Positions 4,880 to 58,691 are shown, counted from the first letter of the stretch. The stretch is DNA of 64,000 nucleotides from an uncultured Candidatus Binatia bacterium (GCA_965218395.1 OZ244620.1:2961546-3025545); one strand, 5' to 3'. A program made the numbers and translations. Notes: generated by a model from the sequence alone, not told the origin.

Positions 4880-5007
4880 ATATTCAGAATAAAACCCCGT
4901 TCTTGTAAGCGGTCTTTTTTATTTGACTTTTCGGCTATTTCTTTCTACAGTCTCCCTCCGCTCTCCGGAAGGCAGAGCCGCCCTCTTTCCCCAGGCTCGC
5001 AATACAC

Positions 5008-5047
5008 GAAGCGGTGTGTGTTGGCATGAAGCGGTGCGAGTTGGCAA
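5008..5047. repeat. Tandem 20-nt direct repeat GAAGCGGTGTGTGTTGGCAT / GAAGCGGTGCGAGTTGGCAA upstream of the KamA-family gene
   Basis: Two adjacent 20-mers identical at 17/20 positions, ending ~30 nt before the gene's RBS. Candidate regulator binding sites. Confidence 0.35.
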
Positions 5048-5075
5048 GAGGAGACTCCTCAGAGGAGGTATCTCT

Positions 5076-6470
5076 ATGCTGAACGAAACCACTCACCGTC
5101 TTGATATTTCAAATGGGTCCCCCCTTGCCGTCACGTCCGAATCCCCCGCTCCGCGCTTCAAGGTGTATAACGAGCGTCACCTCGACCAGATTCCGCAACT
5201 GCAACGATTATCTGATGCGCAACGCTTTAATATGCACGTGGTGGCCAGTGTCTTGCCCTTTCGCATTAATCCGTACGTCATCGAAAATCTCATCGATTGG
5301 GATAATATCCCCGATGATCCGATGTTCCAGTTGACTTTCCCGCAGCCTGGGATGTTGATGGCGGAAGACTTTGAGCGCATGGCCGGTCTGCTCAGGAAAG
5401 GGGCGAATCGAATCGCGATCAAAGCCGCCGCAGATGAGATCCGCATCCGGCTGAACCCGCATCCGGCCGGCCAACAGCAGATGAATGTCCCGCATATGGC
5501 CGGCGAATCGCTGCCCGGCATGCAGCATAAATATCGCGAAACCGTCCTCTTTTTTCCGAGCCAGGGCCAGACCTGTCATACCTATTGCACCTTCTGTTTT
5601 CGCTGGGCGCAGTTCGTGGGCATTCAGGAGTTGCGGTTTAATTCAAACGACGCGAGCCAGCTCCACCGCTATCTGGCCTCACAGCCGCAGGTGAGTGATC
5701 TGCTCATGACCGGCGGAGACCCGATGGTCATGAAAACCCACCATTTGGCCGAATACCTGCGTCCCTTGCTCCGACCCGAGTTCGAGCACATCCAAACCAT
5801 TCGGATTGGCACAAAGGCGCTAACCTACTGGCCCTTTCGCTTTACGAGCGATGCGGATGCCGACGACCTCATGCGCTTGTGTGAACAGCTCGTCGCTGCC
5901 GGCAAACATGTGGCGTTCATGGCCCACTATAACCACTGGCGGGAACTGGAGCAGCCCCAGGCGCGTGAAGCCATCCGGCGGGTGCGCTCGACCGGAGCGG
6001 TCGTCCGTGGTCAGGGACCGCTCCTGGCCCATATCAACGACGATGCCGCGGTGTGGACCCGGTTGTGGCGCACCCAGGTCCGCTTGGGCATCATCCCGTA
6101 TTATATGTTTGTCGAACGCGATACCGGGGCGCGGTGTTATTTTGAGGTGCCTCTGGCCCGCGCCTGGGAGATTTACCGTGAGGCCATTTCCCAGGTCTCC
6201 GGTCTGGCGCGGACCGCCCGCGGCCCGTCCATGAGTGCCGGGCCGGGCAAGGTCGAGGTGCAGGGCGTCACCGAAATGAACGGCGAAAAGGTCTTTGTCC
6301 TGCGCTTCATCCAAGGGCGCAGTGCCGATTGGGTCCAGCGACCGTTCTTTGCCAGGTTTGACCCCAGCGCGACCTGGCTCGACCAGCTCAAACCCGCCGG
6401 CGGAGAACCCCAATTTTTCTTTGAGCCCGAATACCGTACCATCCAGGCGCAGGCTTCAGCCGGACACTGA
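5076..6470 (+). CDS. KamA-family radical SAM protein (lysine 2,3-aminomutase-like)
   Basis: Radical SAM CxxxCxxC motif (CHTYCTFC) and KamA-like N-terminal blocks (IPDDPMFQLTFPQ...). Start chosen at an ATG 8 nt after GGAGG, which is internal to the longer ORF 4923-6470. Confidence 0.85.
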   Translation: MLNETTHRLDISNGSPLAVTSESPAPRFKVYNERHLDQIPQLQRLSDAQRFNMHVVASVLPFRINPYVIENLIDWDNIPDDPMFQLTFPQPGMLMAEDFERMAGLLRKGANRIAIKAAADEIRIRLNPHPAGQQQMNVPHMAGESLPGMQHKYRETVLFFPSQGQTCHTYCTFCFRWAQFVGIQELRFNSNDASQLHRYLASQPQVSDLLMTGGDPMVMKTHHLAEYLRPLLRPEFEHIQTIRIGTKALTYWPFRFTSDADADDLMRLCEQLVAAGKHVAFMAHYNHWRELEQPQAREAIRRVRSTGAVVRGQGPLLAHINDDAAVWTRLWRTQVRLGIIPYYMFVERDTGARCYFEVPLARAWEIYREAISQVSGLARTARGPSMSAGPGKVEVQGVTEMNGEKVFVLRFIQGRSADWVQRPFFARFDPSATWLDQLKPAGGEPQFFFEPEYRTIQAQASAGH

Positions 6471-6479: not shown

Positions 6480-6701
6480 TCACTCACGGGGCTTGAGCAT
6501 CCGAATACGCCGCACCGGTGGATGGCCGGGGGTGTCATCCACAAAGGTGAGGTGCTCCGCCTCACAGGCGGGACAGATAATCAGCGTCCCGTATTTTTCG
6601 TGCTCAATCATGGGCGGCCAGTTGCCGCCCGCCGGCTCGCCATAGTTGCTCATCTGGTAGAGTTCTTCGGCACACATCAGACAGTACTGGGATTTTGCCA
6701 T
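6480..6701 (-). CDS. Small zinc-ribbon protein (two CxxC pairs), hypothetical
   Basis: MAKSQYCLMCAEE...ICPACEAEH, 73 aa. Start chosen at the ATG with a GGAG RBS, since the upstream extension of the ORF is low-complexity. Confidence 0.45.
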   Translation of the reverse strand: MAKSQYCLMCAEELYQMSNYGEPAGGNWPPMIEHEKYGTLIICPACEAEHLTFVDDTPGHPPVRRIRMLKPRE

Positions 6702-6727
6702 AGGCTGACTCCTTCTCCTTTTGCTCC

Positions 6728-6746
6728 CTCTCCCTCTGGGAGAGGC
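6728..6746. repeat. Palindromic repeat CCTCTCCC-TCT-GGGAGAGG (GGGAGAGGG family)
   Basis: Perfect 8-bp inverted repeat in the divergent intergenic region. Confidence 0.5.
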
Positions 6747-6956
6747 TTGGGATAAGGCTGTCTGCGGAACAGCCATGTCCGGGCGACCTCCACACTCCTG
6801 CACGGCACTGGATTCCGGCTTTCGCCGGAATGACGTTCTACGATGGGTTGTATCCTAGGTTTCAGTCGTCTGCCCTTGTCCTTCGTCTTGACGCTCTGAG
6901 GGGGACGGGGTAGGTCTTCTTGTGGCCGGCAACCACCGCCGCAAAAGGGAGACGAC

Positions 6957-7421
6957 ATGTTTGAGTATACTATGCAGCACCTCTTTTCCTATACCGCCAG
7001 CCTGGAGATGCCGCCCGAAACAATCGGGCCGGTGCCCGGCGGCGTCCGGGTCAATGTCTACATCACCGGCGGAGAAGTTGCAGGTCCCAAACTGCACGGC
7101 AAGCTGCGCCCGGTTGGCGCGGATTGGCTGACTATCCGACCCGATGGGGTGGCCTATCTCGATGTGCGGGCGACGGTTGAGGCGAACGACGGGGCATTGA
7201 TCTATGTGACCTATAACGGAGTGTTGGATTTAGGCGCGGACGGCTATCAGAAATTTCTGGCCGGCGAGCTGCCGCCCAGCGGGACGCCGATTCGGACGAA
7301 CCCCTGGTGTCAGACCGCTCACCCCGACTATATGTGGATGAATCGTTGTCTATGTGTCGGGGTCGGAGAAGCCTATCTGGAACGGGGTGAGGTCCGCTAC
7401 GACATATATGCCGTACGCTAG
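6957..7421 (+). CDS. DUF3237 family protein (beta-barrel), hypothetical
   Basis: Carries the YITGGEVAGPKLHGKL..GADW block characteristic of DUF3237. Confidence 0.65.
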   Translation: MFEYTMQHLFSYTASLEMPPETIGPVPGGVRVNVYITGGEVAGPKLHGKLRPVGADWLTIRPDGVAYLDVRATVEANDGALIYVTYNGVLDLGADGYQKFLAGELPPSGTPIRTNPWCQTAHPDYMWMNRCLCVGVGEAYLERGEVRYDIYAVR

Positions 7422-7444: not shown

Positions 7445-7996
7445 ATGAGCAAACCGAGCTGGAAACTCACGTATTGGTGTGCAGCCCTCAGCGCTGGTCT
7501 GCTGCTGTGGAGCCGTCCCGTCGGTGCCGCGGTTGAGGTCGGGAGCCCCGCGCCCGTGTTTTGTTTGCCCGCCCAGGACGGCGAGGCGGTCTGTCTCTCA
7601 GACTTCACGGGCAAACGAAATGTCCTGCTGCTTTTTTATATTTTGGACTTTACCCCAGGCTGAACTCTTCAGTTGGCAAACGGGCAGGAAGCCCGGCAGG
7701 AGCAGCAACTCGACGCGGTGGTCCTGGGAATCAGTACCAATCACCCCGCCTCCCAGCGTATATTCCGCGAACAACTGGCCCTCAGCTACCCGTTGTTGAG
7801 TGCGTTTGACGCTCCCGAGGTGGTTGAAGACTATGTGGGCTGGCTGGACCGGGAAAAGCGGCTCAGTCAGCGGGCCTATGTGCTGATTGATACGGACGGC
7901 ATCGTGCGTTTCGTGCGCGTCATGCAGAACCCCGCAGAGGTCCTGGCGGTGAGCGAGCTGGAGGCCGAGCTGGCCAAGCTCACCGCGGCCCAGTAA
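7445..7996 (+). CDS. PrxQ/Bcp-type peroxiredoxin with an in-frame TGA at the peroxidatic Cys position (candidate selenocysteine peroxiredoxin), with N-terminal signal peptide
   Basis: ORFs 7445-7663 and 7673-7996 are in the same frame, separated only by a TGA at 7661-7663. Reading through gives FYILDFTPG-[TGA]-TLQ, against the Bcp motif FYPKAMTPG-C-TVQ. The downstream blocks VLGISTN..PLLSAFD and LIDTDG are colinear with E. coli Bcp. The signal peptide is MSKPSWKLTYWCAALSAGLLLWSRPVGAA. Confidence 0.6.
7672..7709 (+). promoter_or_regulatory. Candidate bacterial SECIS hairpin downstream of the TGA
   Basis: GTTGGC-AAA-CGGGC-AGGAA-GCCCG-GC-AGGAGCAG-CAAC. The inner 5-bp stem has a G-containing apical loop ~23 nt after the TGA, and an outer GTTG/CAAC stem begins 9 nt after the TGA. 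Confidence 0.35.
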
Positions 7997-8075: not shown

Positions 8076-8807
8076 ATGCAGACGCGTGTCCTCTGGGTTC
8101 CAGTCGTTATTGCCGGTGTCCTGACCGCCGGTCTGTGGGCCTCGCCACGTCTCGCCCTGGCGCAGGACGCCCCGGCTGATGCGGGCCGGCATTCCCAGGA
8201 GGTTGGCGCCCCGCAAGTGCTGGAAATCCCTGTCCGGAGCAGCCTGACCCAACCGACCGCTCCGGTCGGAACCCCAGCGTCAGACCAGCTGTCCGGTTTC
8301 GGAGACGTGCAGCCACACCAAGACTGGTCCTCTTCTGCAACGGGCGGCCCGTTCTCTGAATGGCCCGACCCGTCTGTGGCCGAGTCCAAACGAACCTATC
8401 TTGGCGTCCTGTACGCCACCGCCGAGGAAGGACCGGAGGGCGTCCAGGTATTAAGCGTGATTGAGGGCAGCCCGGCGCATCGTTCCGGTTTTGAAGGCGT
8501 GAATACGCCAACTCAGTACAGCCGGAATGATTTAGTGAAGAAAGCCGCGATTATTGCGCTGGCCATGTCACCGGCCGGTCCGTTTGTCCTGCCCCTGGTT
8601 GCCGCTCACGATCACCTCACCCGGGAGCGTCAGCCTGCCGGTGATCTTATTGTTGCGGTCGAGACCACTCCGGTTCGGACCGCCCAGGACTTCACCGAAA
8701 CCATGCAGCGCTACCACCCCGGAGACCGGGTGTCCTTTTCCGTTATCCGCAAGAACCAGCCCCGCCAAATTACGGTGACGCTCGAAGAAGAACCGTTGGA
8801 ACCGTAA
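8076..8807 (+). CDS. Secreted PDZ-domain protein
   Basis: Signal peptide MQTRVLWVPVVIAGVLTAGLWASPRLALA follows an AAGGGAGG RBS. PDZ-like blocks GVQVLSVIEGSPAHRSGF...GDLIVAVETTPV. No protease domain. Confidence 0.65.
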   Translation: MQTRVLWVPVVIAGVLTAGLWASPRLALAQDAPADAGRHSQEVGAPQVLEIPVRSSLTQPTAPVGTPASDQLSGFGDVQPHQDWSSSATGGPFSEWPDPSVAESKRTYLGVLYATAEEGPEGVQVLSVIEGSPAHRSGFEGVNTPTQYSRNDLVKKAAIIALAMSPAGPFVLPLVAAHDHLTRERQPAGDLIVAVETTPVRTAQDFTETMQRYHPGDRVSFSVIRKNQPRQITVTLEEEPLEP

Positions 8808-25441: not shown

Positions 25442-26215
25442 CTACACTCCGCGAAAATGCGGCGTGCGTTTCTCCAACATGGCGCGCACGCCTTCGTTGG
25501 CGTCTTCGCTCTTGCGCGCCTGACGGACCAGGCTGTTGAGATCGTCGTGGTCTATGCCGTCCCGGAGCGAGATCATCCGCAGAATGCTCTTTTTCATGCC
25601 GGCCAGAGACAGCGGTGCGTTGGCGGCAATCGTCCGGGCCAGGGCTAGCGTGGCCGCTTCCAACTCGTCGGCAGCAACGAGCTGATGCACCATGCCGATT
25701 TCATACGCCCGCTGGGCGTTTACGGGCTGGCCCGTCAAGAGAATCTGCTTGGTGAAGGCCGGACCGACAATCTCAACGAGTTTTTGACCCAACCGAAACG
25801 GAGCAATGAGCCCCAGCCGGGCCAGGGGCATGCCAAACCGGGCGACTTCCGAGACCACGCGCAGATCACAGTGCAGGGCGAGTTCGCAGCCGCCGGCCAG
25901 GGCATCGCCCTGGACCATGGCAATGGTCGGATGGCGCGACGTTTCGATTTTTCCGAGCAGCTCAATAATACCGCTTTCCGCATCTTCGTCGCTGTGCTGA
26001 CGGGCGTTCAACTCCCGCAGGTCCAGGCCGGCACAAAAGGCTTTGCCCTCGCCACGGACGATAATCGCGCGGACATCATTGTTGGTCTCCAGTTCGCCAA
26101 AATAATGCTCCAATCCCTCCAGCACCGCCGTATTCATGGCGTTCCGCTTTTCCGGTCGGTTCAGGGTAATGGTGGCAATGCCTTCGTTGATTGAGCACAG
26201 GATTTCTTCAGCCAC
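25442..26215 (-). CDS. Enoyl-CoA hydratase/isomerase (crotonase family)
   Basis: ATITLNRPEKRNAMN...AFCAGLDL crotonase signature. Confidence 0.9.
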   Translation of the reverse strand: MAEEILCSINEGIATITLNRPEKRNAMNTAVLEGLEHYFGELETNNDVRAIIVRGEGKAFCAGLDLRELNARQHSDEDAESGIIELLGKIETSRHPTIAMVQGDALAGGCELALHCDLRVVSEVARFGMPLARLGLIAPFRLGQKLVEIVGPAFTKQILLTGQPVNAQRAYEIGMVHQLVAADELEAATLALARTIAANAPLSLAGMKKSILRMISLRDGIDHDDLNSLVRQARKSEDANEGVRAMLEKRTPHFRGV

Positions 26216-26343
26216 ACGCGCCTCCTTAGAGTGGACACAGACGTGCGCTCAGCTAAGCGGTTTCTTTGGGGAAGGTCAAGGTGACGGGAGCGGGAGATTA
26301 GGGGATTTTCTGTATATGAAGGCTATACTTCCCTGCTGCCCTC

Positions 26344-26580
26344 ATGAATAGTGGGGCTGTGGATAATCATCCGAATAAGCATATTCGGAGGGCCGTTGAA
26401 TATGCTCTCAACCATGGCTGGGTATTGCGTAAGTCTGGTCCAAGGGCGCATATTTGGGGAAGGCTGCACTGTTCACACGGTGATAGGACTGGTTGCAGTC
26501 GAGCTGTATATTCAACGCCAAAGCATCGAGAGGAACACGCTAAAGATATTCGCCGCGCTGTTGACCGCTGTCCCCACTAG
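26344..26580 (+). CDS. HicA-like toxin (tentative)
   Basis: 78 aa. NHGWVLRKSGPRAHIWGRLH resembles the HicA GWxxxRxxGSHxxxxH core. Lies in a ~0.7 kb low-GC islet. Confidence 0.45.
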   Translation: MNSGAVDNHPNKHIRRAVEYALNHGWVLRKSGPRAHIWGRLHCSHGDRTGCSRAVYSTPKHREEHAKDIRRAVDRCPH

Positions 26581-26620
26581 AAGCGGTAGAATATTCTTCC
26601 ATTCATTAAAGGACGCCAAG

Positions 26621-26881
26621 ATGGCCAGATACGAGTTCACGTTAATTCTCTCAGGTTCACTGGAATTGACCGAAGACATTGCCGATGCGTTGTTTGAAGC
26701 TGGCTGCGATGATGGAACGCCTGGGACGTGTAATGGGGTATTTTCTATTGATTTCCATCGGGATGCCGATTCGTTAGAAGAAGCTATCCTCTCTGCAATC
26801 GGTCATGTGAACTCCGCTGGCTACGAGGTAGAACGAGTAGAAATTGAGGCCGGCGCAGTTACCGCACAGGTAAACCTCTGA
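26621..26881 (+). CDS. HicB-like antitoxin (tentative)
   Basis: 86 aa. ...GTPGTCNGVFSIDFHRDADSLEEAILSAIGHV resembles the HicB PGCxTxGxTxEEAxxNxxEAI block. Sits immediately downstream of the HicA-like gene. Confidence 0.45.
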   Translation: MARYEFTLILSGSLELTEDIADALFEAGCDDGTPGTCNGVFSIDFHRDADSLEEAILSAIGHVNSAGYEVERVEIEAGAVTAQVNL

Positions 26882-26909
26882 GCAGCCTCCGGGCTTATTT
26901 TGAAAGCGC

Positions 26910-27311
26910 CTATACCAGCGGGCGGCTGTTGAGACTCGGTGGAGGGGTGGGGGGATTGGGATCGTCGGGCTCCCGTTCGGTGTCCGCCGAGTCGGTCAGA
27001 AAGACAATCTCCGCCAGCAGACCGGTCACCAGAAAGAGGAGGACGGCACTGCCCCAGTAACTGATATGGAGGGCATAAAACGCGCCAATCGACAGCACGG
27101 CGGCGGCGATGGCGCACACGCTGGACAGCCGGGGTGGGAGCTTCACCGGCTTTTTGTAGCGGGCCGGGAGAAGCCCTATCAGCAGTCCGAACGGGCCGAT
27201 CAATACGCCGCCAATCAACCGGCCTTGCCACTCCCGGCCCTTGCTGGCCGCAATACAGGCCGACAGGACCGCGCACAGGAACCAGAGACCGATGAAGACG
27301 AGGAGTTTCAT
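26910..27311 (-). CDS. Hypothetical small membrane protein
   Basis: 133 aa, three predicted TM segments, Pro-rich C-terminus. Confidence 0.4.
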   Translation of the reverse strand: MKLLVFIGLWFLCAVLSACIAASKGREWQGRLIGGVLIGPFGLLIGLLPARYKKPVKLPPRLSSVCAIAAAVLSIGAFYALHISYWGSAVLLFLVTGLLAEIVFLTDSADTEREPDDPNPPTPPPSLNSRPLV

Positions 27312-27340
27312 TGGGGTTCACCCTCAAGAGAAACCCTCAC

Positions 27341-27359
27341 CCTCTTCCTCAGGGAGAGG
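27341..27359. repeat. Palindromic repeat CCTCTTCC-TCA-GGGAGAGG (GGGAGAGGG family, one G-U pair)
   Basis: Inverted repeat between the membrane protein gene and the DUF35 gene. Confidence 0.45.
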
Positions 27360-27391
27360 ACCAGGGTCGGAGCAACTGTCTTGGTAGAAAA

Positions 27392-27862
27392 CTATTCATT
27401 AAACTTCCAGGTGTTCTCTGCCGCGCCGCTGACCTTCCAGCGCGGCACAACGATATTGGCCTCGTTGGTCTGCTCAAATTCTACGCTGACGGGCAGACCG
27501 ATAGCAACGTCTTCTTCATCGTCCAGCATGACCCCGCCGACGCGGACGAGCGAGCCGTCGGCTTCGTAGCAGTCGTCCAACTCAATCAGGCCGACAACAT
27601 AGGGGACGGCTTCGACAAAGGCGCCCAGGATGGGCTGGGTCACGACGATATAGCTGTGGAGCACGCCGGTTCCGGCGGTCTCAAACCAGCCGAGGTCCAT
27701 GGAGTTGCATTTATTGCAGGCGGGGAAGGGCGGAAACCATTTGTGTCCGCAGTCTTTGCACTGGCGCACGAGATATTTGTGTTCTTTGGTGGCCATCCAC
27801 CATTCGACGGTATCGAAGTCGGGTGTGATCGTGATTTTGCTGTAATCAATCGGACCAGGCAT
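27392..27862 (-). CDS. DUF35 OB-fold/zinc-ribbon protein (thiolase partner)
   Basis: Zn-ribbon CKDCGHKWFPPFPACNKC plus an OB-fold. AAAGGAG RBS. Overlaps the upstream thiolase stop. Confidence 0.8.
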   Translation of the reverse strand: MPGPIDYSKITITPDFDTVEWWMATKEHKYLVRQCKDCGHKWFPPFPACNKCNSMDLGWFETAGTGVLHSYIVVTQPILGAFVEAVPYVVGLIELDDCYEADGSLVRVGGVMLDDEEDVAIGLPVSVEFEQTNEANIVVPRWKVSGAAENTWKFNE

Positions 27863-27875
27863 AGTCAGCGCTCCT

Positions 27876-29105
27876 TTAGGCTGAAATCCCGCGCAGAATG
27901 GCGGAACTCGACATGGTTTCCGTTCCCCAACCGAGACAGGCCGCAATGCGGGCGTCTTTCACCTGGCGACAGCCGGCCTGACGGTCGTAGCTGTGTTTGC
28001 CCTCTGCCCAGCCGGGACAGGCGTCATCGGCGCGGTGGCGGAGTTGGCGCACGTTCTCAATCACCATGCTCACCCCGTGGGTATAGCCTTCGGACAGATG
28101 CCCCCCGGAGAGGTTGGACGGCAGTTCGTGGTCAATCTGCAAACGACCACCTTTCACAAATTCACCCGCCTCGCCTTTACCGCAGAAACCGTAGGCTTCG
28201 AGCTGGATGAGGGTGGTGAAGGTGAACGCGTCGTAGCACGAAATCAGGTTCACGTCTTTCTGGCTGATCCCGGCCATGCCGAACAAACGCTTGCGGCCAT
28301 AATTTCCGGCGACGTAGTGAATCTCCGGGCGCGAGTAGTTCCAGGCCGCGTTGGGCGCCATGGTCCGCCCCGTCCCACCCATAATGAAAACCGGCGGCTG
28401 ACGCAGGTCATAGGCGCGTTCACGCGAAGTGACAATGAGACAGGCCGAGACGTCGGTTTCGAGGCAACAGTCGAGCAGGCGCAGGGGTTTGACCACCCAG
28501 CGTGAATTCTGGTGATCTTCAATCGTGATGGGGTGACGCATGACCGCCTTGGGGTTCAGGCTGGCGTGATAACGATGGGCGACCGCGATTTCGGCCAGCG
28601 ACTTGGTCGTCGTGCCGGTGTCGCGTAAATAGCGCATGGCGGACATGCCGAAGCGTTGGGCCGGCGAGGTCCAGCCCCAGGGCATCATGAACTGATTATC
28701 CTCGGCCGCCCGGGTGGGCGGCACCGGACCGCTCGGCGCCTGCCCGCCCATGCGTCGCCCGGAGCGACCGTTCATGGAGCGGAAGATCAGCATGGTCTTG
28801 CAATAGCCGGCTTCCAGCAGGCCGATCGTGTTGCCGATCAGGGCCTCGGTACTCGACCCTCCGCCGAGAATATCGACCGAATAGTTGAGCCGCATGCCGA
28901 GCGACGTGGCGATATGATTCGAGGTGGTTGAATCCCCGGCTTGATAGCTGGTCATACCGTCGATATCGCGCGGCTCCAGGCCGGCATCGGCCATGGCCTT
29001 TTTGACCGCCTCACACGCCATGGACAAAGTGGTGCGATTGGATGGGCGCATATGCGGCGTTTCTCCCACGCCGACAATGCAGTATTTGTCAGTCAGTGCC
29101 CCCAT
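27876..29105 (-). CDS. Thiolase-like protein (SCP-x/nonspecific lipid-transfer-type thiolase)
   Basis: 409 aa thiolase fold. Paired with the DUF35 gene, as in lipid/steroid side-chain degradation clusters. Confidence 0.85.
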   Translation of the reverse strand: MGALTDKYCIVGVGETPHMRPSNRTTLSMACEAVKKAMADAGLEPRDIDGMTSYQAGDSTTSNHIATSLGMRLNYSVDILGGGSSTEALIGNTIGLLEAGYCKTMLIFRSMNGRSGRRMGGQAPSGPVPPTRAAEDNQFMMPWGWTSPAQRFGMSAMRYLRDTGTTTKSLAEIAVAHRYHASLNPKAVMRHPITIEDHQNSRWVVKPLRLLDCCLETDVSACLIVTSRERAYDLRQPPVFIMGGTGRTMAPNAAWNYSRPEIHYVAGNYGRKRLFGMAGISQKDVNLISCYDAFTFTTLIQLEAYGFCGKGEAGEFVKGGRLQIDHELPSNLSGGHLSEGYTHGVSMVIENVRQLRHRADDACPGWAEGKHSYDRQAGCRQVKDARIAACLGWGTETMSSSAILRGISA

Positions 29106-29153
29106 ACTTCCCTCCTTTTCCCCTGGTTTCAGTTCGCACGATATTCCATCCCC

Positions 29154-29183
29154 TCCTGGGACGTGTGATGCACATTCCCAGGA
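29154..29183. repeat. 30-nt hairpin TCCTGGGA-C-GTGTG-ATG-CACAT-TCCCAGGA
   Basis: 8-bp stem, 1-nt bulge, then a 5-bp stem. It lies in the intergenic region between the LLM gene stop and the thiolase start. Confidence 0.35.
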
Positions 29184-29241
29184 ACCCGCGCTCGCCAGAC
29201 GCGCGGTGGCCGCCAGGCCGGGGTGGGTTCCTGCCTCTCTC

Positions 29242-30270
29242 TTACGTATTCATCTGTAATCTCACTTCCTGAACGAATTCTCGGTAGCGTCCAGGGTCCT
29301 GACGCTCTGAGGCCCCAAAGCCAATGATGAGGCGGTCCAGGAGCCCGCTATACCGGGCGGCCAGTTTTGTGGCAATGGTGTCATAGGTGCCGATGACGGC
29401 GATTTCATCCAGCATCTCGTCGCTAATTTCCGCCGCCATGCCGTCCCAGTCGCCCCTGGCGGCTTTTTCGTTCAGCCGAAAGCAGGTCTCTCCCCAGCCG
29501 TGCGCGTCGAGTACGCCCTTATAGGTCCGCGTTGAGGCATAAAAGGCGACCTGTTGCCGCACCGCGCCGACGGCTTGCCGGACTTCGTCCGGCGTGGCGC
29601 CGCTGGCAATAAACGTCCCGGTTTGCAGGGTGAAGTCCGCCCGCTGCCGGCCGGCCTTGGCGAGGCCCTTTTCAATATTGGGCAGTACGGTTTCCTTGAG
29701 ATAGGTCGGGGTGTGAAAATTGTGGACAAAAAAGCCGTCCGCCACCTCGCCGGCAAGCCGGCTGATCAAGGGATTCAGGCCAGAGAGAATAATGGGAATG
29801 TGCGGCTGCTCGATCGGGCCGGGATTAAAGAACGGCGTCATCAGCGAGAATTGATAAAACTCGCCTGCGAAATTGAGCGCGCTGCCATTCTGCCAGCAGT
29901 CCCAGATGGCTCGCAGCGACAGCACGACTTCGCGCAGGCGCTTCACCGGGGCCTCCCATTTGACGCTAAAACGCCGCTGGTTGTGGCCCTTGACCTGGGT
30001 GCCCAGCCCGAGCATGAAGCGCCCACCGGAGTTGGCCTGTAAATCCCAGCAGATATTTGCCAGCACCATGGGACTGCGCGGAAAGACAATGGCCACACCG
30101 GTGCCAAGCTGGATACGTTCGGTTTCCCCGGCGGCGACCACGAGGGGAAAAAACGGATCGTGGCTGGTCTCCGCAGTCCACAACCCATCCAGGCCCAACT
30201 CTTCAGCCTGGCGAGCAGCCGTGGCCGCGGCCGCAAAGGTCGAGGGCATCAGGGCCGTATCGATTTTCAT
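29242..30270 (-). CDS. LLM-class (luciferase-like) flavin/F420-dependent oxidoreductase
   Basis: 342 aa TIM-barrel LLM signature (LGLDGLWTAETSHDPF...). Confidence 0.85.
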   Translation of the reverse strand: MKIDTALMPSTFAAAATAARQAEELGLDGLWTAETSHDPFFPLVVAAGETERIQLGTGVAIVFPRSPMVLANICWDLQANSGGRFMLGLGTQVKGHNQRRFSVKWEAPVKRLREVVLSLRAIWDCWQNGSALNFAGEFYQFSLMTPFFNPGPIEQPHIPIILSGLNPLISRLAGEVADGFFVHNFHTPTYLKETVLPNIEKGLAKAGRQRADFTLQTGTFIASGATPDEVRQAVGAVRQQVAFYASTRTYKGVLDAHGWGETCFRLNEKAARGDWDGMAAEISDEMLDEIAVIGTYDTIATKLAARYSGLLDRLIIGFGASERQDPGRYREFVQEVRLQMNT

Positions 30271-30279
30271 TGTCGGCTC

Positions 30280-31434
30280 CTAATACGACCGCGGCATGCC
30301 CAGCACGTGCTCGGCAATAAAATTGAGCACCATATTGTTTGAGATCGGCGCGATTGAGAACAAGCGGCTCTCACGGAACTTGCGCTCCACGTCATACTCT
30401 GACGCAAAACCATACCCGCCATGAGTATCGATAGCCGCGTTTGCCGCGGCCCAGGAGGCCTGCGAGCACAAGAGCTTGGCCATATTGGCCTCGGCGCCAC
30501 ACGCTTCACCCGCGTCAAACAAGTCAGAGGCGCGAAAGCGCATGAGGTCCGCGGCCTCAGTCTGGGCATACGCCTGGGCGAGTGGAAACTGGATGCCCTG
30601 GTTCTTGGTGATGGGCCGCCCGAAAATCTCGCGTTGATTGCCGTACTGGACGGCGCGCCTGATAAACCAGCGGGCGTCACCAATGGCCTCGGAGGCGACC
30701 AGGATACGCTCGGCATTCATCCCGTCGAGAATATGGTAGAAGCCGCTGCCTTCCTCGCCAATCAGGTTTTCGACCGGGACTTTGAGCTCGTGGAAAAAGA
30801 GCTGATTGGTTTCGTGGTTAATCATGGCGTCAATCGGGCGCACTTCGACGGCGTCTCCGGCCTCACGCAAATCCACGAGAAAGATACTCATGCCGAGCGT
30901 TCTTTTGGGGCTCTCGTCGTACGGCGTGGTCCGGGCCAGCAGGAGCAGCATATCGGAGTGCTGCACCCGGGAGGTAAAAATTTTACCACCGTTCACAATA
31001 TAATAGTCACCGTCTCTCTTGGCCGTGGTGCGAATATGCGTCGTGTCAGAGCCGGCGTCCGGCTCGGTGACGCCAAAGGCCTGGAGTCGAAGCTCTCCGC
31101 TCGCAATCCGGGGCAAATAGCGCTGTTTCTGTTCGGCGCTGCCGTGCCGGAGCAGGGAACCCATGATATACATCTGGGCATGGCAGGCGGCGGCATTGCC
31201 GCCCGAGCGGTTGATCTCTTCTAAAATAACGCTGGCCTCTGTCACCGTCAGTCCCGAGCCACCGTATTGTTCGGGGATGAGGGCCGCCAGCCAGCCGGCC
31301 TGTGTCAGCTCATCGACAAACTGCTCAGGGTAGTGATTTTCCTTATCGAGTTTGCGCCAATATTCGTCTCCGTACTGGCTACAGAATTTGCGTATCTCAC
31401 TCCGAATTTCAGGACAGCGTTCTTTTTTTGACAC
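30280..31434 (-). CDS. Acyl-CoA dehydrogenase
   Basis: 384 aa with ACAD N-terminal, middle and C-terminal domains. Confidence 0.9.
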   Translation of the reverse strand: MSKKERCPEIRSEIRKFCSQYGDEYWRKLDKENHYPEQFVDELTQAGWLAALIPEQYGGSGLTVTEASVILEEINRSGGNAAACHAQMYIMGSLLRHGSAEQKQRYLPRIASGELRLQAFGVTEPDAGSDTTHIRTTAKRDGDYYIVNGGKIFTSRVQHSDMLLLLARTTPYDESPKRTLGMSIFLVDLREAGDAVEVRPIDAMINHETNQLFFHELKVPVENLIGEEGSGFYHILDGMNAERILVASEAIGDARWFIRRAVQYGNQREIFGRPITKNQGIQFPLAQAYAQTEAADLMRFRASDLFDAGEACGAEANMAKLLCSQASWAAANAAIDTHGGYGFASEYDVERKFRESRLFSIAPISNNMVLNFIAEHVLGMPRSY

Positions 31435-31492
31435 TGGGTTTCCTCCCTCTCTCTACAGGACTGGCCGCGACACCATTGCGCGCGTGTCTGTT

Positions 31493-32236
31493 TTACTCTC
31501 TCGTCAACAGCAGGTCGGGACGCAGGACGGTATTACCGCGGGCCAGGCTGTTCACGGTCGCCTTGGAGACCATGACCGCCGTCGGGTTTTTATCGGCCAG
31601 GCTGCGGGCCAGGGCGTACGCGGTCGGCAGCAGGTCTGCCTGGGGGACTACCTGGTTGACCAGCCCGAGCCGGAGGGCTTCGTCCGCCTTCAGGTGCCGG
31701 CAGTTGAGGATGATGTCCTTGGCTCGATTCGGCCCCACACTGGCGACCAGCAGGGCGGTTGAGGGGGGGCTCAGCGGCACGCCGAGGTCTACTTCGGGAA
31801 ACCAGAACTCGGCCTCCTCAACCGCTATCCGAAAATCGCACGCCAGCGCCAGCGACCAGCCGCCGCCAATCGCGTAGCCGTTGATGGCGGCAATCACGAC
31901 CGGCTCCATGCTGGCAAACATATCGAGCGTGCGGGCAATGGCGCGCGTCCAGCGTTTGCCCAGCGGGGCGAAGATTTTGCGCCGCTCCCGGCGATCGCTG
32001 ATGCCTCTGATGGGCGAGAGGTCGGCGCCGGCTGAAAACGTATTGCCCGTTCCGGTAAAAACAACCACGCGAATGTCGGTATCGTCGCGTATCTGGTATT
32101 GCAGGCGCTCCAGTTCCAGGGCAATGTCTTCGTTGAGTGGATTGCGCTTCTCCGGGCGGTTAAAGGTGAGCGTGGCAATGGTTCCGTCTTTTTCCAAAAG
32201 AAAATGATCTGGCACAGCGGACCCCCTTGGCGGCAT
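31493..32236 (-). CDS. Enoyl-CoA hydratase/isomerase family protein
   Basis: Crotonase fold (GTGNTFSAGADL). Confidence 0.85.
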   Translation of the reverse strand: MPPRGSAVPDHFLLEKDGTIATLTFNRPEKRNPLNEDIALELERLQYQIRDDTDIRVVVFTGTGNTFSAGADLSPIRGISDRRERRKIFAPLGKRWTRAIARTLDMFASMEPVVIAAINGYAIGGGWSLALACDFRIAVEEAEFWFPEVDLGVPLSPPSTALLVASVGPNRAKDIILNCRHLKADEALRLGLVNQVVPQADLLPTAYALARSLADKNPTAVMVSKATVNSLARGNTVLRPDLLLTRE

Positions 32237-32352
32237 ACAATAACGGCCTCATCTAAGCGGACGCCCCGCCGTCTGGCAAGAGAGGCGGACGCGGCCTTTC
32301 TCTTGGAAATAGGCTATGCTTAGTCCGAGTTGAGCAGATAAAGGAGGACGGT

Positions 32353-33123
32353 ATGGAGCTTGGACTCTCAAACAAGGTGGCAATGATTAGCGGAGCGAGT
32401 CGCGGTATTGGGCGCGCCATGGCCCTGGGACTGGCCGCGGAAGGCTGTCGCTTGAGCCTGTGCGCGCGGGGCCGAGAGCAGCTTGAGGCCACCGCCCAAG
32501 AAGTCCGAGGGACGGGTGTTGAGGTGCTGGCCACGGCGCTGGACGTGAGCCAGGAAGCCGAGGCGCGACGCTGGGTCGAAGCCACGCAGCAACATTTTGG
32601 CGGGATCGATATTCTCATCAACAATGTCGGTGGGTCGCGTCCGGGCGGCAATCTGGGCGCCTCTCGGCAGGACTGGCAGGCCGGCTTTGCCCTCAATTTC
32701 TTTTCTGCGCTGGACCTGTGCCAGTTGGTCGTCCCGATCATGGAAGAACGCCAGGCGGGCTGTGTGATTAATATTGCTTCGATCTACGGCCGCGAGTGGG
32801 GCGGACCGATGACCTATAACGCCGCAAAGGCCGCCATGATTAGCCTGTCCAAAGAAATGGCCCGCGCGCTTGCTCCCAAGGGGATTCGGGTCAACAGCGT
32901 TGCGCCGGGGTCGATTCTCTTCCCTGGGGGAGCGTGGGAACAAAGACAAAAAGAAAACCCCGAGGGCATTGCCGCCTTTGTCAAAGCCGAACTGCCGGTC
33001 GGCCGTTTCGGCAAGCCGGAAGAAGTAGCAGATGTGGTTGTCTTCTTGGCTTCGGAACGCGCCCAGTGGGTTTCCGGGGCGTGCATTACTGTTGACGGCT
33101 GTCAGTCACGCTCGTTGATTTAA
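32353..33123 (+). CDS. SDR-family oxidoreductase
   Basis: ISGASRGIGRAMA cofactor motif and a YxxxK region. Confidence 0.9.
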   Translation: MELGLSNKVAMISGASRGIGRAMALGLAAEGCRLSLCARGREQLEATAQEVRGTGVEVLATALDVSQEAEARRWVEATQQHFGGIDILINNVGGSRPGGNLGASRQDWQAGFALNFFSALDLCQLVVPIMEERQAGCVINIASIYGREWGGPMTYNAAKAAMISLSKEMARALAPKGIRVNSVAPGSILFPGGAWEQRQKENPEGIAAFVKAELPVGRFGKPEEVADVVVFLASERAQWVSGACITVDGCQSRSLI

Positions 33124-33198
33124 GCTGACGGGAGAGTCTTGATTGTCATTGGATATTTTATTATTCTTTTGGTTATCAAACTTATAAGGCTAAAGATA

Positions 33199-33441
33199 AT
33201 GGGAGCAATCGCCGTATCAAAGGAGACGGAACAACAGATTGAACGACTCCGGAAAGCGTTAGGCATTCCCAGTAAGGCCGGTATTCTGCGAGTGGCCTTA
33301 CAAACCTTAGAGGAGAAAACGGAAAAAGAGCGGCTCCGAGCGGCAATTCGAGAATCTGTACGCCATTGTGCGGTCGCTGATCAGGAAGAAAATCGCGCCT
33401 TATTTCCTGCGAGTACGGCTCACACTCTTCCCGAGGAGTAG
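33199..33441 (+). CDS. Antitoxin (probable RHH-type) of a PemK/MazF-like TA pair
   Basis: 80 aa. Begins after an AT-rich stretch (33124-33198) and stops 8 nt before the toxin start. Confidence 0.5.
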   Translation: MGAIAVSKETEQQIERLRKALGIPSKAGILRVALQTLEEKTEKERLRAAIRESVRHCAVADQEENRALFPASTAHTLPEE

Positions 33442-33448
33442 ATGCCCG

Positions 33449-33793
33449 ATGGAGATCAAACGCGGGCATGTGTATATTGTTGACTTTAATCCTCGGGTCA
33501 GGACCAAACCGGGTAAGCTGCGTCCGGCGGTGGTCTTGCAGTCGAATTTGGTGAACGAAGCCGGCTATCCTTCGACTATTGTCATTCCAACAACAACCCG
33601 TTTGGTTGAGAAGCCTGGCATCCTCCGCTTCCATATGGAGAAAGGTCAAGCTGGTCTTGAGCGGGACAGTGATTTTCTTTTGGGCCAACTAATTGCGGTA
33701 GCCAACGCCTCTTTCCGGCAAGAGATCGGCGTGTTACCGAGCGCTACGATGCGGGAAATGGAAAGCCGGGTACGCATTATTTTGAATCTCTAA
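33449..33793 (+). CDS. PemK/MazF-family toxin (mRNA interferase)
   Basis: MEIKRGHVYIVDFNPRVRTKPGKLRPAVVLQSN... matches the MazF/PemK pattern RGDIYxVDLxPxxGxExxGxRPxVVL. GAGGAG RBS. Confidence 0.75.
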   Translation: MEIKRGHVYIVDFNPRVRTKPGKLRPAVVLQSNLVNEAGYPSTIVIPTTTRLVEKPGILRFHMEKGQAGLERDSDFLLGQLIAVANASFRQEIGVLPSATMREMESRVRIILNL

Positions 33794-33898
33794 ACACTCA
33801 CGCTGTGTGAGAATGACGCCCGATGAGACGCAAGGCCAACCCGGGCGAATTGCTCCCCTGAGTTGCTGAGAACGGGGAGAGGGAAGTTGGAGAGAAGC

Positions 33899-34702
33899 AT
33901 GCATGAGCGCTACGAAACCCTGGAACTGCGGCGGGACACCGACCTCTTATGGCTCGTTTTGAACCGCCCGGCGTCGCTGAACGCCATGAATAGTCCGCTG
34001 GTCAACGAGCTGCACGGCGTGCTCGACGAATTGCACCAGGATCAGGCCGTCCGGGTGGTCATCCTGCGCGGCGCGGGCCGCGGCTTTTGCGCCGGGCTGG
34101 ACCTCAAACAGTCCAGCGCCGCAACCGGCACCTATTCCGTGGCCCAGGGCCTGCAGGACCAGCGCCGGATCGCCGAGTTGGCGATTAAAATTCACCGCGC
34201 CCCGCAGCCGTTTATTGCCGCGGTTCACGGCCCGGCCGCCGGGGGCGGTTTTGCCCTGGCCCTGGCGAGCGATATCCGCATTGTTGGGGAATCCGCACGC
34301 ATGAACGCGGCCTTTATCCGCATCGGGCTGTCGGCCTGCGATGTAGGCGTGAGTTATTTTCTGCCCCGGCTGGTCGGCTCTTCGGTCGCTTCCGAGCTTT
34401 TGCTGACCGGGGACTTTATTGATGCGCAGCGCGCCCTGGCAACTGGGCTGGCCTCTCGCCTGGTGCCGGACGCCGAACTGGACCAGGCCGCCGAAGCCAT
34501 GGCCCGCCATATTCTGCGCAACTCGCCCCTGGGAGTGAGGCTGACGAAAGAATGCTTGCGCTACTCGGTTGACGCGCCAACGCTGGAGGCGGCCATTGCG
34601 ATGGAAGATCGGAATCAGATTTTGACCACGCGGACACATGACGTGCGTGAGGGCATTGCGGCTTTTCTGGAGAAACGCGCGCCGCGGTATGAGGATGCCT
34701 GA
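33899..34702 (+). CDS. Enoyl-CoA hydratase/isomerase family protein
   Basis: Crotonase fold (RGFCAGLDL). Confidence 0.85.
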   Translation: MHERYETLELRRDTDLLWLVLNRPASLNAMNSPLVNELHGVLDELHQDQAVRVVILRGAGRGFCAGLDLKQSSAATGTYSVAQGLQDQRRIAELAIKIHRAPQPFIAAVHGPAAGGGFALALASDIRIVGESARMNAAFIRIGLSACDVGVSYFLPRLVGSSVASELLLTGDFIDAQRALATGLASRLVPDAELDQAAEAMARHILRNSPLGVRLTKECLRYSVDAPTLEAAIAMEDRNQILTTRTHDVREGIAAFLEKRAPRYEDA

Positions 34703-34735
34703 CGGACGCCTGTCGTCCGAAGATGTTTTACTGTG

Positions 34736-34760
34736 TAGGGGCAACCCCCTGTGGTTGCCC
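34736..34760. repeat. Second copy of the 26-nt palindromic element GTAGGGGCAACCCCCTGTGGTTGCCC
   Basis: Near-identical to the copy at 2045-2070. Lies 34 nt after the hydratase stop. Confidence 0.6.
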
Positions 34761-34786
34761 GTTGCACGGCAGGTTGCAGCATACGC

Positions 34787-35497
34787 CTAGAGGGCGAGCA
34801 GACGGGGGAGTTCAGTAATACTCGGCAGGATATAGTCCGCCTGCTCCTGGCGCATGACGGCGTCGGTGCTGGTCCCGGTGAGGACCCCGACGGTGGCGAC
34901 CCCGGCGGCTTTGCCGGCCTGAATATCAATGGGCGAGTCGCCAATATACACCGCCTGGTGAGGCTCAAGCCGGAGATGTGCCAGGCACTTCAGAACGGGT
35001 TCCGGATGGGGTTTCCGGTGGGTGACGTCTTCCCGGCCGACGATGCCGCCAAAGAGGTGGCGCACGCCCCAGGTATCAAGAAAAGGCAGGGCGCGGCCGG
35101 ATGAGGTGGCGATCCCGAGTTGAAAACCCTGGTGATGCAGCCGATGCAGGAGTTCGAGACTGCCCGGAACGGCCTGCGTCTCTTCATGATAGCGTCGCAA
35201 CCATGCGTCCATCCGACTGTCGGTGATGCGCTTGAGACGGTCCGCCGGGTCGGGATAGTCGGGGGGAAAGAGCTGGACGAGCGGATTCTCGACCCCGCGG
35301 CGCATCAACTCATACACCCGGTCGCGTGGCACCGGGGGAATACCGGCCAGGGCCAGCACCTCTAAGGCGATCTCATAGAAAAACTCGACCGACTGGGCGA
35401 GCGTCCCATCCACATCGAAGATAAGGCCGCTGGCGTGTATGCGACACTGAGTAGACAGGCCAGCATCCGCATGTCTGTTGAGGGCAGGTTTACTCAT
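34787..35497 (-). CDS. HAD-family hydrolase (phosphoglycolate phosphatase-like)
   Basis: IFDVDGTL motif I, plus motifs II and III. Start chosen at an ATG adjacent to the coaE stop. Confidence 0.75.
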   Translation of the reverse strand: MSKPALNRHADAGLSTQCRIHASGLIFDVDGTLAQSVEFFYEIALEVLALAGIPPVPRDRVYELMRRGVENPLVQLFPPDYPDPADRLKRITDSRMDAWLRRYHEETQAVPGSLELLHRLHHQGFQLGIATSSGRALPFLDTWGVRHLFGGIVGREDVTHRKPHPEPVLKCLAHLRLEPHQAVYIGDSPIDIQAGKAAGVATVGVLTGTSTDAVMRQEQADYILPSITELPRLLAL

Positions 35498-35498
35498 C

Positions 35499-36095
35499 TC
35501 ATTCGCTGAGCTGATCCCAGGCCTGTTGGACGTGCTGCTCAAGGGCTTGGAGTGAGCCGTTATTGCGGATGACCACCTGGGCGTGTGTGCGGCGCTGTGC
35601 GTTTGAAAGCTGGTTCGCAATGCGGGCTTCGGCGTCCGCGGCGGACATGCCGCGTTGTTCGGCCACACGACGAATGGCCGCGTCTTTGTCGGTCTCGACC
35701 ACCCAGACCGTGTCGGCCAGGGGCAGCCAGTTGGCTTCAATCAGGATAGCCGCCTCAACCACAATGGGCAGGCCAAATCCCGCGGCGCGCTTGGCCTGGA
35801 TACGCTGCCGGATTTCCTCGAACATAATCGGGTGGACGATGGCGTTGAGCCGGGCGAGTGCGTCCGGACTACCAAAGGCAATGGCTCCGAGTTTTTTGCG
35901 ATCTATGGTCTGGTCTTCCGCGACGATTTCCCGTCCGAAGGTGTCGGTGACCTGTTTCCAGGCGGGCTGACCGGGCAGATAGATTTCGTGTCCGACGATG
36001 TCTGCGTCAATAATATAGGCCCCAAGTGTGGCCAGGAGCTTGGAGACCGTACTTTTGCCTGAGCCGATCCCACCGGTGAGTCCAATGGTTTTCAT
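35499..36095 (-). CDS. coaE: Dephospho-CoA kinase
   Basis: MKTIGLTGGIGSGKSTV P-loop. 198 aa. Confidence 0.9.
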   Translation of the reverse strand: MKTIGLTGGIGSGKSTVSKLLATLGAYIIDADIVGHEIYLPGQPAWKQVTDTFGREIVAEDQTIDRKKLGAIAFGSPDALARLNAIVHPIMFEEIRQRIQAKRAAGFGLPIVVEAAILIEANWLPLADTVWVVETDKDAAIRRVAEQRGMSAADAEARIANQLSNAQRRTHAQVVIRNNGSLQALEQHVQQAWDQLSE

Positions 36096-43519: not shown

Positions 43520-44008
43520 TCAGTTTAATTGTGCGGAAAGGGCGGCAAGGGTTCGGCGCGCGGTCAGTGAACGGGGCTCAACCGCAAGCGCTCGTCCAAA
43601 TTCTCGGGCTGCCTGGAGGAGATTCCCTTTTGTGAGCGCAATCCGGCCCAGATTCAGATGTGGATAATGCGGCGTGTCATACTGGGCCGCCTCTAGCGCG
43701 TGCTCCAACCATGGGACGGCGGCGTCCAGCTTGCCCATCTTCATCAGATAGAGCCCGATATCGTTGTACGGATTGCCAAACTCGGGGTTGAGGGCAATGG
43801 CGGTGCGGCATTCTTGAATGGCGTCCTCGTAACGCTGGAGAAAACTATACGTCCAACCCAGAGAAGTATGCGCCTCTGCGGTCGGATGCAGTTGGATGGA
43901 TTCCTGATAGAAACGCAGGGCCTCTCCCAGATCGCCTTGTCTTTGGGCCTGATCGCCTTTGTATAAGAGTGCCGATGCCTTTTCCTCGCGGTCTTTTATT
44001 ATATCCAT
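43520..44008 (-). CDS. TPR-repeat protein
   Basis: Four TPR-like units (GDLGEALRFYQESIQLHP...). Confidence 0.7.
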   Translation of the reverse strand: MDIIKDREEKASALLYKGDQAQRQGDLGEALRFYQESIQLHPTAEAHTSLGWTYSFLQRYEDAIQECRTAIALNPEFGNPYNDIGLYLMKMGKLDAAVPWLEHALEAAQYDTPHYPHLNLGRIALTKGNLLQAAREFGRALAVEPRSLTARRTLAALSAQLN

Positions 44009-44062
44009 ATACTCGTTCCTGTGGTGAGCGTTATCAGAAAAATGGGTCTGATTTTCCGGCTG

Positions 44063-44824
44063 TCAAGTCCAAGCCGGAGGTTTTGAAGCAGGGGGCGGCG
44101 TAGTGAAGTGGAAATAGAAGGAGAGAGCCGTGTAGTAGAGGGGGTAGTAGAGAGAGGCAATGACAAGCCAGGGGTGGGCCTGGGGGAGCCGGGAGAGCAG
44201 GAGGAGAAGAACGCCAACCCAAGTAGCGCCGAGCACATTCGTCAAGAGGCGCAGGCGAACGGTCCGCGTCGGGTAGATGTAGCGAATAGGGATAAAGACG
44301 CCGAGGGCCAGGAGGAGCACCAGGCTGCCGTTCAGCCAGATGGGCGTACCGCCGGCGTAGAGATAGAACGCCACAATATTCCAGTAGGAGGGAAAGCCGG
44401 TAAAAAAGAAATCCTGTGTCTTGGCCTCCGCCTGACAAAAACCATACGCGCTGGCAAGGAGCACCGCTGCCACGAAGAGCAGCGTCCCGGAAGCCGGCAG
44501 CAGCTGAAACTGATACAAAAAAACAACTGGAACAATGACATAGGTAAAATAGTCAACAAGGTCGTCCAGCTTGGCGCCGTCAAACCAGGGTATAATCCGT
44601 TTCACCTGAACAGCTCTCGCCAGAACGCCGTCGGTCGCATCGATGAGTACCGCGACTAACATCCAGACAAAGGCCAGCCGGGGCCTGCCCAGGAAAATAG
44701 CCTGGAGGGAGAGAAATCCGGCGACGACACCGGAGGCCGTGTAGGCGTGGACTGCCCAGGCGGCAAAAAGACGCAGGCCGTCTTTCACTTCAGGTGATGC
44801 GCTGTCGGCTGAGGGTGGGCTCAT
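44063..44824 (-). CDS. pcs: Phosphatidylcholine synthase (CDP-alcohol phosphatidyltransferase family)
   Basis: Colinear with bacterial Pcs: AVHAYTASG, DATDGVLARAVQVKRIIPWFDGAKLDDLVDYFTYVIVP, FFFTGFPSYWNIVAF. Alternative GTG start at 44788, just after the upstream gene's stop. Confidence 0.8.
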   Translation of the reverse strand: MSPPSADSASPEVKDGLRLFAAWAVHAYTASGVVAGFLSLQAIFLGRPRLAFVWMLVAVLIDATDGVLARAVQVKRIIPWFDGAKLDDLVDYFTYVIVPVVFLYQFQLLPASGTLLFVAAVLLASAYGFCQAEAKTQDFFFTGFPSYWNIVAFYLYAGGTPIWLNGSLVLLLALGVFIPIRYIYPTRTVRLRLLTNVLGATWVGVLLLLLSRLPQAHPWLVIASLYYPLYYTALSFYFHFTTPPPASKPPAWT

Positions 44825-55138: not shown

Positions 55139-55222
<84 letters not shown>

Positions 55223-55265: not shown

Positions 55266-55331
55266 CTGGGATGCTGATACAACAGACCGCCTGTTTCAGC
55301 GTATGAGTCTGCTTTCCCAAGGAGCGAGTTG

Positions 55332-58604
<3,273 letters not shown>

Positions 58605-58654
58605 ACGGTTGACGCTCCTTTACGTCAGACTGCGATAAATACACCGCTTGATTA

Positions 58655-58691
58655 TTTCTCCTTACCCGCATAGGTTTTTTGTAAGGAGAAA
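58655..58691 (+). promoter_or_regulatory. 10-bp perfect inverted repeat TTTCTCCTTA-N17-TAAGGAGAAA overlapping the vapB RBS
   Basis: The 3' arm contains the AAGGAG Shine-Dalgarno of vapB. Candidate operator or RBS-sequestering hairpin. Confidence 0.3.

Follow-up and report, generated by a model that had tools for sequence, protein, structure and literature searches.

Sec has been known to replace Cys in peroxiredoxins since 2001. Among the nearest known counterparts of the gene described here are AhpE, which has a Cys at the catalytic position, the canonical Pro of the PxxxTxxC motif (a residue otherwise conserved across peroxiredoxins), and no signal peptide, and the BCP/PrxQ proteins, many members of which have a resolving Cys at +5. 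PrxU of Eubacterium acidaminophilum (NCBIfam NF040737) is the prototype of the Sec-containing peroxiredoxins. Those with a T/SxxU motif form a well-established family of selenoproteins, which goes back to several independent conversions of Cys to Sec (PMC1794560, PMC13188914). The bSECIS model describes the corresponding RNA element as a stem of at least 4 bp with a loop of 3 to 9 nt, a G in the first two loop positions, a spacing of 16 to 37 nt, and a minimum free energy (MFE) of −7.5 or lower (PMC13188914). A precedent for a peroxiredoxin of the cell envelope is PprX of Caulobacter crescentus, which is PrxQ-type, carries a signal sequence, and works in that compartment (PMC3322552).

The gene that we compared with these systems lies in a 64,000-nt stretch of DNA from an uncultured Candidatus Binatia bacterium (here, the window). 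Translation of positions 7445 to 7996 on the plus strand gave one frame of 183 codons, interrupted just once, by a TGA at 7661-7663 in the context LLLFYILDFTPG-*-TLQLANGQ (the asterisk marks the stop); an SD-like GGGAGAG is found 5′ of the ATG. The first-pass annotation had read the two ORFs that flank the TGA (7445-7663 and 7673-7996, in the same frame) as one peroxiredoxin interrupted at the peroxidatic Cys, and our translation, domain search, and alignments bear this out. With Cys put in for the stop, the product matched Pfam AhpC-TSA (PF00578) with an E value of 1.2e-21 (77.3 bits versus a cutoff of 26) over residues 32 to 156, and the stop thus lies inside the matched region. When Cys-containing relatives are aligned, the TGA falls in the column of the peroxidatic Cys; with Mycobacterium tuberculosis AhpE, for example, FFPLAFTGIC is set against FYILDFTPG*. 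The factual statements of the first-pass annotation all hold, including its hairpin coordinates and an Ala at +5. We conclude that the peroxiredoxin gene only looks broken and is almost certainly single and intact, with a UGA-encoded catalytic Sec, and we consider it very probable that 7445-7996 is a genuine selenoprotein gene, encoding an exported AhpE/BCP-like peroxiredoxin with Sec at the UGA at 7661-7663. The features of the locus are as follows.

6957 to 7421, plus strand: DUF3237 gene (Pfam, 4.1e-35), 23 nt upstream of the peroxiredoxin gene.
7445 to 7528, plus strand: predicted signal peptide, residues 1 to 28 (MSKPSWKLTYWCAALSAGLLLWSRPVGA), with predicted cleavage at VGA/A, between A and A (inspection).
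7529 to 7660, plus strand: N-terminal half of the mature peroxiredoxin, including Cys40, Cys50, FY(I/V/L)LDFTPG, and Thr70 at −3 (Pfam AhpC-TSA, 42/42 unique orthologues, dN/dS).
7661 to 7663, plus strand: UGA, very probably read as Sec, residue 73, at the peroxidatic position (TGA in 44 loci, Cys in aligned homologues).
7664 to 7996, plus strand: C-terminal 110 codons and TAA stop, including GISTNH, PLLSAFD, and the invariant Arg143 (intact in all loci, dN/dS).
7669 to 7713, plus strand: possible extended SECIS, with a lower stem (UCAGUUGGC with GC..CAACU.GA) around the apical hairpin (RNAfold minimum-energy structure of the identical sequence of locus L001).
7681 to 7695, plus strand: apical hairpin of the candidate SECIS, CGGGC-AGGAA-GCCCG (folding, a position common to five clades, metagenome matches, bSECIS model).
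8076 to 8807, plus strand: gene for a predicted secreted PDZ protein (Pfam PDZ_2, family alignment, structure model, Foldseek).

We fetched 44 related loci from about 40 Candidatus Binatia species, with identities of 57 to 99%; a one-genome-per-species scan gave 39 loci, nearly all of them from Candidatus Binatia and many on closed chromosomes of 4 to 6 Mb. The interrupting codon was TGA in the window and in all 44 loci (42 unique coding sequences), and none of the 44 had TAA, TAG, TGC, or TGT at the catalytic codon. In the alignment of orthologues and Cys homologues that the first-pass annotation had proposed, the orthologues keep TGA, and the four Cys homologues checked carry TGC or TGT at the aligned codon. 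We also scanned metagenomes for a back-translated FYxLDFTPG followed by TGA, TGC, or TGT, with all three codons equally allowed. Among the matches listed (loci L054 to L173), 120 of 120 had TGA; taken with the 44 loci, this goes well beyond what chance would give.

The first-pass annotation had further pointed to a SECIS-like hairpin after the TGA. Its coordinates and its geometry are upheld by our analysis, which also shows the hairpin to be fixed in position; its folding energy is not superior to that of synonymous recodings. In the window, the hairpin loop starts 22 to 23 nt after the TGA. The stems differ among the five clades of orthologues (CGGGC/GCCCG in clade A, CCGGAC/GUCCGG in clade B, GGGCA/UGCCC in clade C, CCUCC/GGAGG in clade D, and CCUCC/GGGGG in clade E), and the hairpins of all five have their centre 24 to 26 nt past the U of the UGA. 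Among 492 alignment columns, no other position has a hairpin of at least 5 bp common to the five clades; by chance, 6e-5 would be expected, and synonymous recoding gives a joint probability of 4e-4. Among the metagenome matches listed, 98% of 99 unique sequences had a hairpin centre at +20 to +28, whereas the median for other offsets was about 17%. In each of the 37 unique Binatia sequences, the stem was at least 5 bp long, the loop 3 to 9 nt, and the spacing 16 to 23 nt, and the MFE was −8.7 or lower; 36 of them had a G in the first two loop positions; the same fraction, 36/37, agrees with the bSECIS model in every respect.

Tests of stability were negative. The region after the UGA had no folding advantage over dinucleotide shuffles (z = −0.28); in most clades it had none over synonymous recodings (z from −1.6 to +0.7, with L030 and L033 as exceptions) or over other 45-nt windows of the gene, and for this reason we dropped folding energy as evidence. 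Covariation within clades was weak: a single compensatory change, from AU to GC, and several GC pairs turned into GU did not rise above shuffled controls. A covariance-model search, which the first-pass annotation had suggested as a check, returned no match to any Rfam SECIS family at either gathering or permissive thresholds. Four distant Cys homologues, a small and weak control, lacked a hairpin at the SECIS offset (two had none, and two had one at other offsets). Judged from these comparisons, the hairpin is convincing as a candidate SECIS only through its conserved position and not through its stability. As a separate observation, the peroxiredoxin genes of the clade D orthologues (L032 to L035) themselves end with TGA; one mRNA would there carry two UGAs with different fates, and a hairpin follows only the first.

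If the gene is read as proposed, it implies that Candidatus Binatia decode Sec. We found no selA, selB, or selD in the 64-kb window or in the fetched loci by tblastn with E. coli SelA, SelB, and SelD, no tRNA-Sec in the same sequences with ARAGORN, and no paper linking Binatia or Binatota with selenoproteins; the sequences listed by a database search with E. coli SelA were all enterobacterial. A second reading is one in which the UGA is recoded but not as Sec: SelB might deliver a Cys-charged selC*-type tRNA (tRNA-ReC), or near-cognate read-through might occur, leaving Cys or another residue at position 73. Such recoding would also explain the conserved UGA, the SECIS-like hairpin, and the translated downstream half, and selC* tRNAs can accompany Sec genes (PMC13582414). 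However, an ordinary Cys codon would put Cys there at lower cost, and yet TGC or TGT occurs in 0/44 loci and in 0/120 among the metagenome matches listed, which argues that the residue is chemically different from Cys; moreover, near-cognate read-through needs no hairpin fixed in position. We regard non-Sec recoding as improbable, although it is the alternative that fares best, and retain Sec as the residue encoded at 7661-7663.

Public gene calls raise a different alternative, that of a truly split gene, in which the UGA terminates a short secreted N-terminal peptide and a C-terminal fragment is initiated separately. All of the calls examined for this peroxiredoxin family give two fragments, and the window gene does have a TTG four codons 3′ of the TGA. 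Across the orthologues, however, ATG, GTG, and TTG were absent from the 12 codons after the TGA in 27 of 33 unique sequences, so in most of them the downstream half cannot come from separate initiation. That half is intact in all 44 loci (101 to 115 codons, with no further stops or frameshifts), and pairwise dN/dS values were 0.03 to 0.19 before the TGA and 0.08 to 0.16 after it; by this measure, both halves are under purifying selection. Truncated orthologues with a degraded downstream half, which the first-pass annotation had named as the outcome that would count against it, were not seen. A split gene also leaves unexplained why the break is in every case a TGA, and in every case at the catalytic codon; a C-terminal fragment made by itself would have neither a signal peptide nor the catalytic residue, and the enzyme-defining residue would be lost even though Thr70 and Arg143 are invariant. 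We consider this reading slightly less probable still than non-Sec recoding. Comparison of the orthologues shows instead that the UGA is translated: the 110 codons downstream are conserved under selection, usually without a start of their own. Together with the in-frame UGA that is itself conserved and with Cys in the aligned homologues, this selection on the downstream part is a feature of selenoprotein genes. A pseudogene or sequencing error, with the TGA as a recent inactivating mutation or artefact, would account for the stop codon itself and nothing more, and its likelihood is negligible given TGA in about 40 independently assembled species and at least 120 metagenome contigs, a downstream dN/dS of about 0.1, and the lack of further stops or frameshifts. 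Global reassignment of TGA was ruled out because TGA is the ordinary terminator of 20 of 53 well-supported window genes. Taken together, pseudogene formation, sequencing error, a split gene, and global reassignment are excluded or very unlikely.

Other possible selenoprotein genes of the window were considered and rejected. Same-frame ORF pairs are too common at its GC content of 60% to serve as a signal, and the best candidate, at 43520-45148 on the minus strand, proved to be two unrelated genes, one for a CDP-alcohol phosphatidyltransferase and the other for a TPR protein.

The predicted protein has features of export and of 1-Cys-type chemistry. Inspection and hydropathy analysis identified a basic n-region, a hydrophobic core (10-residue Kyte-Doolittle mean of at least 1.9), and an AxA-type site in every orthologue; the sequences vary between clades, and such features are present in each of them, as expected from the earlier description of the protein as secreted with a signal peptide. 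Genes for TamB, a LolA-like protein, and MltA elsewhere in the window mark the organism as diderm, so that the peroxiredoxin would be periplasmic. Seven residues are invariant in 42/42 unique orthologues: Cys40, Cys50, Thr70, Gly72, Sec73, Gln76, and Arg143. The peroxiredoxin Thr at −3 and Arg are thus both present. The Pro at −7 (PxxxTxxC) is replaced by Ile, Val, or Leu in 42/42 orthologues and is likewise missing across the FYxLDFTPG-U clade, among the matches listed. There is no resolving Cys at +5 in any orthologue, where Ala, Ser, or Thr is found instead (Ala in the window), which agrees with the earlier assignment to a 1-Sec type. In the alignment with AhpE, Cys40 and Cys50 lie 10 residues apart on paired strands of an N-terminal β-hairpin, and we infer that they may form a cross-strand disulfide or have a resolving role.

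The assignment to the PrxQ/Bcp type fared less well. Bcp (NF006960) was indeed the best NCBIfam match, at 61.1 bits, but this is under the 140-bit cutoff, and AhpE structures match as well: the best match among solved structures was M. tuberculosis AhpE (Rv2238c, PDB 1XXU; 1.5e-15, about 139 residues aligned), with archaeal BCP structures nearly equal (2ywn, 2.8e-15), so that the subfamily assignment is not decisive. We describe the protein as probably AhpE/BCP-like and as a 1-Cys type, without a clear PrxQ identity.

The first-pass annotation had also called the setting beside a DUF3237 gene and a PDZ gene unusual. Both genes were confirmed by Pfam, but their association with the peroxiredoxin differs: DUF3237 stands beside it in clade A and is absent from the clade B to E loci, whereas the PDZ gene is a real conserved partner, found directly 3′ of the peroxiredoxin gene in 41 of 43 loci with enough sequence and fused in frame to it in L002, L027, and L028 of clade B. 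Its likely start in the window is the ATG at 8076, preceded by AGGGAGG, and an upstream ATG at 8028 is also open. In the PDZ protein, a signal peptide, a disordered linker, and a LEEEPL C terminus accompany a PDZ domain of the HtrA/DegS type, whose two-helix insertion (KAAIVVLAMSPAGPFAIPLAIAHD) is conserved and hydrophobic. The motif VGAPQVLEIP is invariant but missing from the fused form, and the protein contains no Cys. Foldseek matched the model of the PDZ domain to the PDZ domains of DegS, DegP, and DegQ, and a protein database search found the family only with the Binatia-type locus. No reductant gene, whether of the TlpA or the ScsB type, was found near the peroxiredoxin gene.

Other genes of the window were recorded in passing. 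Upstream of the peroxiredoxin module is a gene for a KamA-family radical SAM aminomutase-like protein (4923-6470, plus strand), present in clades A to C only, and after it comes a small ORF on the minus strand (6480-6803) without a Pfam match, which is called as 73 residues in L001 and L002. At 25442-35740 is a β-oxidation-type cluster with three enoyl-CoA hydratases, an acyl-CoA dehydrogenase, a thiolase-like protein, a luciferase-like monooxygenase, a short-chain dehydrogenase, and a HAD hydrolase. Just downstream of a tRNA-Leu(CAG) gene (55139-55222) and the valyl-tRNA synthetase gene (55329-58604), the region at 58648-60357 (plus strand) has the look of a small toxin-antitoxin and defence islet, in which a MazE-like antitoxin is paired with a PIN-domain toxin and the next gene, of low third-position GC (0.42), carries AbiJ_NTD4 and DUF7014 domains.

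How such a gene family appears in databases was evident from searches with the window protein. The protein database returned only C-terminal fragments of 105 to 110 residues (60 to 99% identity) and proteins of about 283 residues in which the C-terminal peroxiredoxin fragment is joined to a PDZ domain; no full-length close relative was returned. On the contigs behind these matches, an N-terminal AhpC-TSA fragment was always found directly upstream in the same frame. When representative sequences were searched exhaustively with the C-terminal half, numerous weak matches of about 100 residues came up. More distant peroxiredoxin genes that are likewise split by a TGA at the catalytic position were found at L051 (1120-1677; AFTGG-U-TQE), L052 (1279-1845; DHGPT-U-MQN), and L053 (934-1509; FYVLDFTPG-U-VAEF), all three with signal-peptide-like N termini and each present as two fragments in databases. 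The matches of the metagenome scan included the following groups.

U-KTELTEF, 84 among the matches listed: cytoplasmic, without a signal peptide, with the hairpin UGACCGA-GUU-UCGGUCA.
Binatia-like, 27 among the matches listed: exported, the family of the window gene.
U-VREL, U-VGEL, and U-VAEF, 6 among the matches listed: exported, small groups.

None of the NCBIfam models, including PrxU and Prx-SUH, reached its cutoff for the window protein or for the metagenome groups. As far as these sequences indicate, the window gene belongs to a large, Sec-only FYxLDFTPG-U clade. Both the Binatia peroxiredoxin and this wider clade are invisible in annotations, because gene calls split them in two and because no NCBIfam model captures the family; a conserved antioxidant enzyme of a widespread soil phylum would thus have been missed by annotation. 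Genes of this known selenoprotein class are routinely cut into two by gene callers.

We propose the following mechanism. The hairpin at 7681-7695, possibly extended to 7669-7713, would act as a bacterial SECIS that recruits SelB-GTP-Sec-tRNA(Sec) to the ribosome, and Sec would be inserted at the UGA in place of termination. The signal peptide would direct export by the Sec translocon to the periplasm of a diderm cell, where Cys40 and Cys50 would face each other and form a disulfide or, alternatively, one of them would resolve the selenenic acid. Peroxides would be reduced by the Sec73 selenolate, with Thr70 and Arg143 as its activators. The selenenic acid so formed would be recycled by a periplasmic reductant in a 1-Cys-type mechanism, which is suggested because there is no resolving Cys at +5. 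The secreted PDZ protein, presumably co-transcribed, may position the enzyme, perhaps at the membrane via its hydrophobic helical insertion. Export, the disulfide, and the role of the PDZ protein are all inferences from the protein sequences. A more ambitious proposal, which we offer tentatively and hold to be somewhat unlikely as a whole, is that the locus encodes a dedicated periplasmic selenoenzyme module: an exported 1-Sec peroxiredoxin, held at the membrane by the hydrophobic helical hairpin of its PDZ partner and by VGAPQVLEIP as a docking motif, would need no classical resolving thiol to reduce hydroperoxides of lipids or proteins in the envelope, and it would stand within a large, uncurated Sec-only FYxLDFTPG-U clade whose cytoplasmic and exported branches have been missed by annotation pipelines. 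The locus points to selenoenzymes in the oxidising cell envelope that may be coupled to a PDZ protein.

These findings do not overturn current understanding, since Sec-containing peroxiredoxins are already a known family. Like members of the TxxU family, the window protein has an AhpC/TSA fold with what is very probably Sec in place of the peroxidatic Cys in T-x-x-U, and its UGA is followed by a candidate SECIS hairpin within the coding region. Unlike PrxU, to whose model (NF040737) it scores 39.7 bits versus a cutoff of 270, it is AhpE/BCP-like, with a predicted signal peptide, a Cys pair, and a PDZ partner, and without the motif Pro. It resembles AhpE, a 1-Cys peroxiredoxin, in lacking a resolving Cys at +5 and in the common PLLS(D/A)F and R-x-x-x-(I/V)D blocks, but it differs from AhpE in its putative Sec, its predicted signal peptide, and its missing motif Pro. 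PprX provides a precedent for a periplasmic peroxiredoxin of this kind, although PprX has a resolving Cys and the conserved Pro, and the window protein has a predicted Sec in place of Cys. The Trx7/PDZ domain-containing (seleno)protein (NF041199), which joins a thioredoxin-fold selenoprotein to a PDZ domain, sets a precedent for the clade B fusion; however, the match to this model was weak and confined to the PDZ part (16.9 bits versus a cutoff of 300), and NF041199 has a CxxU motif and is thioredoxin-like, not a peroxiredoxin. The first-pass annotation had presented the gene as an unusual selenoprotein. What is unusual is the exported, PDZ-coupled form, and not the presence of Sec, which is shared with a known family and with the large Sec-only clade to which the gene belongs. 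Sec-containing peroxiredoxins of the TxxU type were already known; distinctive here are export, the Cys40/Cys50 pair, the loss of the motif Pro, and the coupling to a PDZ protein.
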